A DNA stretch of 64,000 nt, taken from the sequence record PZ386974.1. One strand, 5' to 3'. This DNA is from a phage. This document shows, in pieces, positions 57,319 through 61,886 of this stretch; positions within the stretch are counted from its first letter, which is position 1; each line of letters begins with the position of its first letter. Under the pieces are notes generated by a model, which searched no databases, was not told the origin of the DNA, and was given only the letters and a program-made list of their open reading frames with translations. Position numbers and translations under genes: made by a program.

Positions 57319-57343
57319 GGGAGACTTCGGTCTCCCATTTTTG
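57319..57343 (+). terminator. terminator GGGAGAC-ttcg-GTCTCCC + T-run after gene 35
   Basis: identical 25-mer to 9868-9892. Confidence 0.6.
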
Positions 57344-58049: not shown

Positions 58050-61000
58050 ATGGCTACATTAAAACAGATACAATTTAAAAGAAGCAAAGTAGCAGGAGTT
58101 AATCCTACTGCAGCACAATTAGCCGAAGGCGAATTAGCGATAAACTTAAAAGATCGAACTCTTTTTACTAAAGATGACCTCGGTAATATTATTAGCCTAG
58201 GCTTTGCTAAGGGTGGGGATATTAACGGTAATGTAACTCAAAATGGTGATTATTTACAAAACGGCACATTTAACCTCAATGGAAATCAGTTTGTTTATGC
58301 AGGAAAATACATTGAATTTTTACCTAAAACCACTGGAAATGGCGCTTGGGCTAACCAACATTCGAATAAAGCCCCTATCTTTACAGATTTGAGTTCAACT
58401 ACTTCTATTTCAGAATACCACCCTTTGATTAAACAACGCTATAAAGATGGAACTTTTTCTGCTGGTACATTAGTAAACGAAGGTAGTTTTAAATTCCATT
58501 ATATTGATGAAACCGGGACTTCAAAATACTGGACTTTTAATCGAAACGGTAATTTTCAAGTTGATTCTGGAAGTTTATTAGTATCTAATGGATATTTAGT
58601 TACTCAAAGTAATATTGAAACTAAAGCTGGTTCTTTAATTGGTCCTAAAGTTATTACCAAAAATATCAATGTGAGCACTAAATCTTGGGGCACTAATATT
58701 GATACTGCATATGATTTAGTTTCATTACCGACTTGGCACTATACTCCAACCGAAACAGATTTGGATACTAATGGTATAAACTACCTTCGTAAATTCCGCG
58801 GACATGTTTCTTCTGCTATTTTCCATGAAGTTGCTGATGCTCGTTCAGGTAAACCACAGAATATTTCGTATTGGACGGGACGTAATGCTGAAGTTTATCA
58901 ATGGTCTTATACCACAGATGGGCGTATGTCTGTTGCTAATTCGATAGGTATAGGTCTTGCTGATGTTGGTGACCAAGGACGTTATCCATTGGTTTCGTTT
59001 GGTAAAGGTATTGCAATTGGTGACAATGATACTGGTATTAAATGGGTTCGTGACGGGGTTATCGATTTAGTTGCGAATGGTATTTCTGCCGGCACTATTC
59101 TTAATAACGGCATTAACAGTACTAAAAAATTGATGGTTGGTTATAGTCGAGATTCTGGTTCTACTTGGGATTACCCAAATAACAACCAAGCAATGTTTAC
59201 TGCGCGTACCGATGTTGATGGTAATAATAACGGTGACGGTCAGACTCATATTGGTTATAGCAGCAATGCCAAGATGTATCACTATTTCCGTGGCACTGGT
59301 CGTATGTCCGTTAGTATGGGCGATGGACTTCTTGTTGAGCCTGGCATTTTAGATATTAAAACTGGTTCAAATTCGTTAAATTTGCGTGCTGATGGTACCA
59401 TCGCTTCCGTTCAAACGTTAAAACTTAATAATGGATTATATTTTAATGGCGATGGAACTAATGCTTCTCTAGTTTTTAAAGCAGCTTCAGGTATTGATGG
59501 CACTAAGCAAATCATGTGGGAAGGCGGTACTCGAGCAGGTCAGAATAAGAGTTATGTAACGGCTAAAGCATGGGGTAATTCATTTAATGCCACTGGTGAT
59601 AAATCTCGTGAAACTGTATTTGAAGTTAGTGACGGGCATGGATACCATTTTTATTCTCAACGTGTAGCTCCTGCGCCTGGTTCTACCGTCGGACCTATTC
59701 AATTTCGAGTTAATGGTGGTTTATTAACTTCAGGTAGTATTGTTACTTCTGGTTCTATTACAACTGAATCTTCTTTAAGTGTTAATAATGGCATGTCAGT
59801 AAATGGACAAGCTAAATTCGGTGGAACTGCTGATGCATTAAGAATTTGGAATGCTGAATACGGTGCTATTTTCCGTCGTTCAGAGGCGGCATTGCATATT
59901 ATTCCAACTCCTAAAGATGCAGGTGAATCTGGCGGAATAAGTAATCTTCGCCCATTAAGTATCAGCCTTAATAATGGTATGGTGCAAATGCGTCATTCTG
60001 TCACGTTAGGTGACGATGGTGCTGGCGGTAATATGATTACAGTGGACAATGATAACAAACTTGTTGTTGTTACTAGTAATAGTCGCATTTCTCCTAATTT
60101 CAGAATGCAGATAGGTCAGTCGGCATACATTGATGCAGAATGTACTGATAGAGCACGTCCGGCCGGAGCGGGTTCTTTTGCTTCCCAAAATAATGAAAAT
60201 GTACGTGCGCCGTTCTATATGAATATTGATAGAACTGATACTAGTACATATGTTCCTATTTTGAAACAACGATATGTTCAAGGAAATAGCTGTTATTCTT
60301 TAGGAACTCTAATTAATGGTGGTAACTTTAGAGTTCATTATCATGAAGGTGGTGATAATGATTCGACGGGCCCTTTAATTAAGGACTTCGGGTGGGAATT
60401 CAATAGAACCGGTGATTTTATTTCCCCTGGTAAATTAGGCGCTGGTACGGTTCGTATTGGTACTGACGGTAACATCACAGGTGGTTCTGGTAATTTTGCC
60501 AACTTAAATAGTACAATTGAATCACTTAAAACTGATATTGTCTCAAGTTATCCAATTGGTGCTCCGATTCCATGGCCTACTGATACACCTCCTGAAGGTT
60601 ATGCCATAATGGAAGGTCAAACATTTGATGCTGGCTTGTATCCTAAGTTAGCTGCGGTGTATCCTTCCGGCTCTCTGCCTGATATGCGTGGTCAAACTAT
60701 CAAGGGTAAACCATCTGGGCGTGCTGTATTGAGTACAGAAGCAGACGGTGTTAAGTCACATAGCCATAGTGCAAGTGCATCAAGCACAGATTTGGGTACT
60801 AAGACCACTTCTAGTTTTGATTACGGTAGCAAAACGACTTCAAGCTTTGATTATGGTACTAAGACCAGTAATACCACTGGCAACCATAACCATACAGTGA
60901 GTGGTAATACTAGTTCCGCAGGAGCTCACCACCACGCGCGTTCAGGTCCTCAGGTACAAGGCGGCATACCCACTAGCGTATTCTATGATGGATACAATAG

Positions 61001-61304
61001 TGCTGGTCCAAACGGCAACGCTAAATTCACTGCAACCGTGAGCGGTGCTACTGCATCGTCGAATATGGCCAAAACTTCTTCAGACGGTGCCCACACCCAT
61101 AGTTGGTCAGGAACTACTAGCTCTACGGGTAACCACGCGCATACTGTAGGTATCGGTGCCCATAGCCATTCGGTCGGTATTGGTGCTCATACCCACACGG
61201 TAGCTATTGGTTCGCACGGTCATACTATCACTGTAAATAGTACAGGAAATACAGAAAACACAGTTAAAAACGTTGCTTTTAACTATATCGTTCGTTTAGC
61301 ATAA
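58050..61304 (+). CDS. 37: long tail fibre distal subunit / receptor-binding protein gp37
   Basis: 1084 aa; C-terminal His-box (HxH) repeats and terminal ...NYIVRLA as in T4 gp37. Confidence 0.93.
60795..60854 (+). repeat. tandem 30-bp (10-codon) repeat [10 protein letters not shown] x2 in gp37 tip region
   Basis: two adjacent units with conserved peptide but many synonymous differences; T4 has a single copy by recall. Confidence 0.6.
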
Positions 61305-61310
61305 GGAGAA

Positions 61311-61330
61311 GGGACCTCAGTCCCTTTTTA
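61311..61330 (+). terminator. hairpin GGGAC-ctca-GTCCC + T-run between genes 37 and 38
   Basis: lies between the gene 38 SD-like GGAG (61305-61308) and its ATG (61335). Confidence 0.5.
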
Positions 61331-61334
61331 TAAT

Positions 61335-61886
61335 ATGAAACTCTATCATTATTATTTTGACACTAAAGAATTTTACAAAGAAGAAAATTATAAACCATTA
61401 AAAGGCGTAGGATTTCCGGCTCATTCGACACCAAAAAAACCTTTAGACCCTAAAGAAGGCTATGCTGTTATATTTGATGAACGCGAACAAGAATGGGTAT
61501 ATGTTGAAGACCATCGTGGAAAAACGGTATGGACTTATGATAAGCAAAAAATTGTTATTGACACTCCAGGTGCTCTTCAAAATGTTACTACAGAAGAACC
61601 TGGTGAATTTGACATTTGGACCGACGACGGGTGGAAGGAAGATGAAGCATATAAACGTGTAGTTCAACGTGATAAGAAAATTCATGAACTCTATAAATTA
61701 TTCAGTGTTTTAAGTTCTCTTATTGATGCAGAGGTTGCTAATAGAGAAGAAAAACGAAAATTTAAAGAGCTCAAAAAATTCTTTGCCCTTTTAGAAAAAC
61801 ATGAACATCTTGGCGGCGAATTCCCTAAATTCCCTGACCTTGAAAGCAAATCACTTGTTAAACGAATTATAAATATCTTTAAGTAA
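61335..61886 (+). CDS. 38: tail fibre assembly chaperone gp38 (T4-type)
   Basis: 183 aa; MKLYHYYFDTKEFYKEENYKP... matches T4 gp38. Confidence 0.93.
   Translation: MKLYHYYFDTKEFYKEENYKPLKGVGFPAHSTPKKPLDPKEGYAVIFDEREQEWVYVEDHRGKTVWTYDKQKIVIDTPGALQNVTTEEPGEFDIWTDDGWKEDEAYKRVVQRDKKIHELYKLFSVLSSLIDAEVANREEKRKFKELKKFFALLEKHEHLGGEFPKFPDLESKSLVKRIINIFK

Follow-up and report, generated by a model that had tools for sequence, protein, structure and literature searches.

A doubled ten-residue unit in the needle stem of a T4-like long tail fiber tip is probably a length module and is accompanied by an additional His box

[quoted passage not shown] The gene and its 1084-aa product (gp37) were identified from the open reading frame, megablast and an alignment to T4 gp37. 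Its megablast matches were genes annotated as gp37 in Mosigvirus and Tequatrovirus phages, and the flanking 24 kb is ~97% identical to Mosigvirus (RB69-like) phages, including LNA2, HY126, JS09 and APCEc01. Local gene order is that of T4, namely 34, 35, 36, 37, 38, t and asiA. Gene 38 lies at 61335..61886 (+) and its 183-aa open reading frame encodes a T4-type tail-fiber assembly chaperone (Pfam Caudo_TAP PF02413, E = 7.6e-5), with position and length matching those of T4 g38. A T2/T6-type adhesin was considered for gene 38 and was ruled out by the Caudo_TAP match together with this T4-like length and position. Because the downstream gp38 is a chaperone and not a T2-type adhesin, the receptor-binding site should sit on gp37 itself. 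A look-up of the exact gp37 protein against a collection of 15 billion sequences returned no match, and among the matches listed the tips nearest to that of the window were about 94% identical.

In a full-length MAFFT alignment, gp37 of the window is 58 residues longer than T4 gp37 (1026 aa, L001:6543-9623). The divergent shaft (residues 60-660) accounts for a net 21 of these residues and the needle for 37, made up of +10 (the unit described below), two head insertions of +15 and +3, and +9 (one His box of the VGIGAHxHx type in the descending limb). An initial annotation of this DNA had set the 1084 aa of gp37 against ~1026 aa for T4 when describing the duplicated unit. Those lengths are right, but the duplication accounts for no more than 10 of the 58 added residues; most of the difference stems from other indels.

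The domain limits published for T4 gp37 are a knob domain, D10 (residues 811-881 and 1010-1026), a stem (882-931 and 960-1009) and a tip subdomain (932-959), and the T4 needle contains seven iron ions (Islam et al. 2019, PMC6957217). The window gp37 tip is homologous to the T4 tip throughout the crystallized fragment (2XGF), sharing its collar domain and HxH boxes. A phmmer comparison gave E = 6.2e-92 over the whole chain, with query residues 57-334 aligned to chain residues 2-242, which upholds the original description of a T4-like gp37 tip with HxH boxes. Gaps relative to 2XGF were confined to the same +10, +15, +3 and +9 insertions, and the MAFFT alignment agreed. Using the T4 alignment and the limits of PMC6957217, the N-terminal part of the knob/collar domain D10 was placed at residues 832-902 (60543..60755, +; T4 811-881), and a Pfam Collar match (PF07484) was found at residues 837-884 (E = 9e-11; 42 bits versus a cutoff of 24). 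The C-terminal part of D10 comprises residues 1068-1084 (61251..61301, +), of which 16/17 are identical to T4 1010-1026. The last 31 residues of the two proteins are identical at 30/31 positions, and a T4-type gp38 lies downstream of both.

Between the two parts of the knob are eight HxH boxes, beginning at residues 904, 946 and 960 in the ascending stem and at 1015, 1029, 1038, 1047 and 1056 in the descending stem. Box 1 (H904-S-H906, within SHSHS; 60759..60767, +) forms the base of the ascending stem and aligns to T4 H883/H885. Box 2 (H946-N-H948; 60885..60893, +) follows 42 residues past box 1, compared with 32 in T4, and box 3 (H960-H-H962; 60927..60935, +), which corresponds to T4 H929/H931, marks the top of the ascending stem. 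The head, or tip subdomain, was delimited by the T4 alignment and by its variability to residues 963-1008 (60936..61073, +). At 46 aa it is longer than the 28 aa of the T4 tip subdomain (932-959), to which its sequence is unrelated. Box 4 (H1015-T-H1017; 61092..61100, +) stands at the top of the descending stem. It is followed at 61128..61235 (+) by four tandem nine-residue His-box repeats, GNHAHTVGI / GAHSHSVGI / GAHTHTVAI / GSHGHTITV, versus three in T4; Tandem Repeats Finder reported this repeat with a 27-nt period at 61146-61211. The seven His boxes listed in the initial annotation are all present, and the eighth, SHSHS at 904-906, had been missed. Relative to T4, the window therefore has one more ascending ten-residue unit, one more nine-residue box, and eight HxH boxes versus seven. 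The limbs of the stem are of nearly equal length in both proteins, at 60 ascending and 59 descending residues in the window and 50 and 50 in T4.

The ascending unit, G(T/S)KTTSSFDY, occurs twice in tandem in the window. Unit 1 comprises residues 916-925 (60795..60824, +) and unit 2 residues 926-935 (60825..60854, +); by the T4 and 2XGF alignments, unit 2 is the copy missing from T4. A degenerate unit 3 (residues 936-945; 60855..60884, +) is the counterpart of T4 GTKGTNSTGG, and its first 12 nt are the same as the first 12 nt of unit 1. Both T4 gp37 and the crystallized 2XGF chain carry a single copy of the unit followed by GTKGTNSTGG, so the statement of one copy in T4 was accurate, and the alignment proposed at the time as a check for the same duplication in T4 found a single copy there. 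The tandem pair had been located exactly, at 60795-60854, although the second copy is a 9/10 and not a perfect repeat (T->S in unit 2). It had also been described as lying just upstream of the His boxes; with box 1 before it and box 2 after it, it is in fact part of the His-box region.

No tandem 10-mer at >= 9/10 identity arose in 5000 shuffles (0/5000) of the last 200 aa of gp37, and the repeat is thus not a product of chance. At the nucleotide level the units are identical at 23/30 positions and differ at seven; counted by codon, five differ synonymously and one non-synonymously. Nei-Gojobori (NG86) estimates gave a dN of 0.043 and an incalculable dS (returned as -1, which we read as saturation). 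Tandem Repeats Finder did not report the 30-nt unit pair from the DNA, since two copies at 77% identity score under its threshold. The unit was also considered as an instance of the Pfam Phage_fiber repeat (PF03335) and rejected as such: that repeat is 14 residues long, is found elsewhere in T4 gp37 (924-937), and had no match in the window gp37 at E <= 0.01. Many homologues carry a precomputed PF03335 annotation.

The extra ascending unit and the extra descending box were examined together across the wider family. To measure the coupling, the distance separating box 2 from box 1 was set against how many C-terminal HxH boxes follow one another at intervals of exactly nine residues. The census comprised 120 close homologues, 147 of 1954 representatives of 50%-identity clusters (E <= 0.001), and the relatives, T4 and lambda, and yielded 177 distinct complete tips; the remaining off-pattern rows were truncated or frameshifted proteins. 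A spacing of 22 residues was accompanied by two nine-spaced boxes (1 tip), 32 by three (88 tips), 41-42 by four (77 tips), 52 by five (5 tips), 62 by six (1 tip), and 72-73 by seven (2 tips). Over the range of 2 to 7 rungs, each ten residues gained by the ascending limb thus went with a gain of one nine-residue His box by the descending limb, directly in 174/177 tips. Two of the three exceptions have an extra ascending HxH box (19+33 = 52 with five boxes, and 9+33 = 42 with four boxes), and the third has lost box 2 (69 = 32+37 with three boxes); all three fall in line when the extra or missing ascending box is taken into account. Ascending and descending boxes with a spacing of 14 residues likewise occurred in equal numbers, at 0/0, 1/1 and 2/2. 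The census sequences are related and therefore represent few independent coupled events; the six rung numbers observed imply at least five changes of state. This coupling rule is the sole mildly new point of the present analysis and is what the known hairpin structure would lead one to expect.

We consider it quite probable that the doubled unit is a structural element that sets the length of the needle stem, and not a receptor-contact element. In T4-type gp37 tips, the chain exits the knob domain, climbs the stem to the head, and returns down the stem, with the HxH boxes of three chains coordinating iron ions along the needle axis. Each ascending unit is suggested, from this topology and the co-variation, to pack beside one descending His box. 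One more ascending ten-residue unit together with one more descending nine-residue box leaves the limbs of the window stem balanced, and the partner of the extra unit would be one of the first two nine-residue His-box repeats. The most likely effect of the duplication is a stem with one further predicted iron layer, such that the window would have a 4-rung, 8-site needle, with a predicted eighth metal site, compared with the 3-rung, 7-site needle of T4. The stem would then act as a scaffold, and the choice of receptor would be made by the 46-residue head at 963-1008. An AlphaFold2 (AF2) monomer model of residues 807-1084, built on a 28-sequence alignment, was too poor to use (pLDDT 49.4, pTM 0.19), as is expected where the fold is an intertwined trimer. 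The balanced limbs and the coupling rule fit such an intertwined trimeric hairpin fold indirectly.

A broader generalization, which we regard as possible but doubtful, is that the stem of the T4/lambda family is a strictly quantized ladder in which units, His boxes and 14-residue modules change only in step with one another over the range of 2 to 7 rungs; none of the 177 complete tips was an unbalanced intermediate. If such a ladder were real and previously undescribed, it would mean either that stem length changes through exchange of whole hairpin cassettes and not through local slippage, or that imbalance between the limbs is lethal. A simple design rule for fibers of chosen length and iron content would also result. 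The coupling rule itself offers a quick plausibility check on annotations and on designs for chimeric fibers, and a construct that gains or loses a unit on one limb alone is predicted not to fold.

The range of rung numbers bears on a different reading of the same length difference, in which the number of rungs is adaptive. Needle length would set how far the head penetrates O-antigen or capsule on its way to OmpC or the LPS core, and the duplication would act on host range indirectly, via length. The occurrence of 2 to 7 rungs across phage and prophage fibers shows that length is evolvable and tolerated, and the unit sequence is under purifying selection, both of which are in keeping with such tuning. 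The 4-rung stem is nevertheless found in phages from rough K-12 as well as from O-antigen-bearing O26, O157 and Shigella strains, and by our own reasoning one rung is a small fractional change in a fiber that is as a whole far longer. We therefore consider this tuning of reach unlikely.

The initial annotation had instead put forward the duplication as a candidate for altered receptor specificity, on the understanding that the motif lies in the receptor-binding tip. Placed on the T4 structure, the added unit belongs to the ascending limb of the stem (T4 882-931), where it corresponds to 895-904, about 30 residues ahead of the tip subdomain; the extra His box maps to the descending limb (the T4 960-1009 region). 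In the strict sense the motif is thus outside the tip subdomain (932-959), and with it the specificity-determining segment, although it is within the crystallized receptor-binding fragment (785-1026). Such a position is, in that strict sense, one that the initial annotation had itself named as refuting its reading. Mutations affecting LPS/OmpC binding and host range in T4 map to gp37 929-955 (PMC6957217; PMC5221442). The absence of the extra unit from T4 would be compatible with a role in recognition, and two published observations lend that view some substance. One docking model (Bartual et al., as described in PMC5221442) has OmpC contacted by the head and also, laterally, by the needle; if this contact is real, the stem may have some influence on binding. 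Duplications in the C-terminal region of gp37 are also reported to expand the host range of T4 (Tetart et al. 1996, as cited in PMC6957217 and PMC5221442). According to those citing papers, the duplications of Tetart, Repoila, Monod and Krisch are likewise tandem and located in the C-terminal adhesin region of T4 gene 37. They are, however, selected host-range mutants, whereas the unit of the window is ancient, fixed and without host association.

This lack of association was evident from nine relatives (mogra, JS09, phiD1, HX01, APCEc01, phi25-307, F31, SHSML-52-1 and ATK47), whose recorded hosts are E. coli K-12, avian pathogenic E. coli (APEC), O26:H11, Shigella sonnei and Yersinia pestis. 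The two units, the degenerate unit 3 and the eight His boxes were present in 9/9. No association between duplication and host was found, as the duplication occurs in phages of E. coli K-12, O26, APEC, Shigella and Y. pestis alike. Among the nine same-length tips, 31/46 head positions (963-1008; 67%) were variable, versus 0-15% of positions in segments outside the head and 0% in unit 2, and amino acid identity was 37-96% in the head versus 95-97% elsewhere. The unit is thus invariant across heads and hosts that differ widely. Further, in the census both 3-rung and 4-rung stems were combined freely with many head lengths, with 33 to 70 residues from box to box across the head. In view of this distribution, and of the stem location, we judge it very unlikely that the extra unit itself is a specificity determinant, and we would not take the doubled unit as a pointer to a changed receptor specificity.

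The preferred reading, of a stem length module below a variable head, agrees with what has been reported for related phages. The head at 963-1008 is likely the receptor-contacting part, judging from its position and variability, and Mosigvirus phages with a T4-like gp37 differ chiefly in the head domain (Vitt et al. 2024, PMC10844046). A requirement for OmpC was demonstrated experimentally in that study for the Mosigvirus phages AV117 and AV118. The tips of AV110, AV112 and AV113, which are predicted OmpC binders, show 89-92% nucleotide identity to the window tip. By analogy with relatives of the same tip class, the receptor of the window phage is probably OmpC, with or without LPS. The head, at 60936-61073, would accordingly be the place to direct host-range prediction or engineering, with the stem modules serving as interchangeable scaffold.

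The same relatives also speak to the age of the duplication. Unit 2 in the window reads GGT AGC AAA ACG ACT TCA AGC TTT GAT TAT, and this DNA was identical in 6/9 relatives, one nucleotide off in 2/9, and recoded in F31. The synonymous differences between unit 1 and unit 2 recurred in 8/9. Because unit-2 DNA is shared across the relatives, the duplication is older than the divergence of these tips. Taking the shared codon differences together with the low dN, the unit duplication is old and under purifying selection, in line with the earlier suggestion that it is either not recent or under selection, and with the mostly synonymous differences on which that suggestion was based. The tandem, in-frame arrangement of the units might suggest that replication slippage duplicated the unit recently or that the pair is an artefact of assembly; both were rejected as extremely improbable, given that the units differ at 7/30 nt, that identical unit differences occur in independently sequenced phages, and that the pair receives no score as a DNA tandem repeat.

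The arrangement is widespread. The last 837 nt of gp37 had matches in 204 phage records, of which 137 cover >= 80% of the query. Among the matches listed (60 of 204), 60/60 cover 100% of the 837-nt tip and 59/60 span exactly 837 nt. The Mosigvirus phages JS09, mogra, HX01, APCEc01, phi25-307, SHSML-52-1 and ATK47, and the Tequatrovirus phage phiD1, have the same architecture as the window, with an 837-nt tip, both units and eight boxes. Their tips are 87-95% identical to that of the window at the nucleotide level and differ by point substitutions, mostly in the head. As these matches indicate, the gp37 tip of the window adds an allele to a tip class that is common and has been sequenced before.

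The tip of the lambda side tail fiber Stf (orf-314) belongs to the same family, which has been described (PMC9659904), as do E. coli prophage Stf homologues. Lambda Stf has the doubled unit and eight HxH boxes, with spacings of 42, 14, 48, 14, 9, 9 and 9, and the presence of the doubled unit there is a further point against the duplication as a host-range candidate. The pattern 42, 14, x, 14, 9, 9, 9 is common to the window and this group, and T4 is simply a shorter variant. The lambda and window tips are about 62% identical in amino acid sequence and differ in the head, with 48 residues between the flanking boxes in lambda versus 55 in the window. Unlike the window tip, which is part of gp37, the lambda tip is carried on a siphovirus side fiber shaft. 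Judged from these comparisons, dozens of phage genomes on deposit, and lambda, already have the doubled-unit architecture, and the stem arrangement is old, fixed, and common to a large class of Mosigvirus/Tequatrovirus tips and lambda Stf. A small difference from the relatives is found at residues 960-962, at the top of the ascending stem, which read HHH in the window versus HQH or HRH in the relatives.

The shaft of gp37, the distal subunit of the long tail fibre, is a mosaic across window 58230-60000 (residues ~60-650). When aligned to T4 gp37, residues 60-465 retain only 7-29 identities per 60 columns, and eleven indels separate the two proteins up to residue ~660. By megablast, phi25-307 is the only phage covering the whole gp37 gene (90% nucleotide identity), with the remaining phages giving piecewise matches.

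Within the tip, the third His box (HxH, a predicted metal site) reads His-His-His in the window (60927-60935; AHHHARS), whereas all nine relatives compared carry HQH or HRH. This amounts to one substitution at the middle position of the predicted metal site adjoining the head. The head itself (60936-61073) varies in Escherichia phage vB_Eco_F31 (record L008, 601-1452), where comparison of the window tip with its relatives revealed a 5-residue tandem duplication in the head loop, QGGVPQGGVPTS as opposed to QGGIPTS at the equivalent window position (~60950-60975). The F31 tip is 852 nt rather than 837 nt in length because of this duplication. The F31 duplication truly lies within the variable head, in contrast to the doubled 10-residue unit of the window (60795-60854), which belongs to the stem.

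The doubled unit is also present in phage lambda orf-314 (record L011, 2030-2974), the C-terminal part of Stf, which has eight HxH boxes with successive spacings of 42, 14, 48, 14, 9, 9 and 9 residues. Extremes of stem length in the tip family are represented by the homologous proteins P0099, P0165, P0226 and P0230. P0099 carries three copies of a 20-residue super-unit together with seven nine-spaced His boxes, and P0165 has six boxes and five GxK units, four of which end in FDY. The shortest stem is that of P0230 (a spacing of 22 and two boxes), despite which each of its limbs holds two 14-residue modules.

Seven bacterial (prophage) proteins, P0042, P0043, P0046, P0053, P0054, P0060 and P0113, end in this tail-fibre tip and are named 'terminase large subunit family protein' or 'tail tape measure protein' in their source records. 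They also have Pfam matches to terminase or tape measure families, so the underlying gene models are probably either fusions or miscalls.

Immediately 3' of the gp37 stop, inspection by eye picked out a GC-rich hairpin with a stretch of T residues behind it (~61309-61331; AGGGAC-CTCA-GTCCCT-TTTTAT); this hairpin is absent from the hairpin-scan output. A comparable hairpin 3' of gene 35 (57319-57336) is present in that output. In the NBG1 record, a terminator is annotated beneath its match to gp37.
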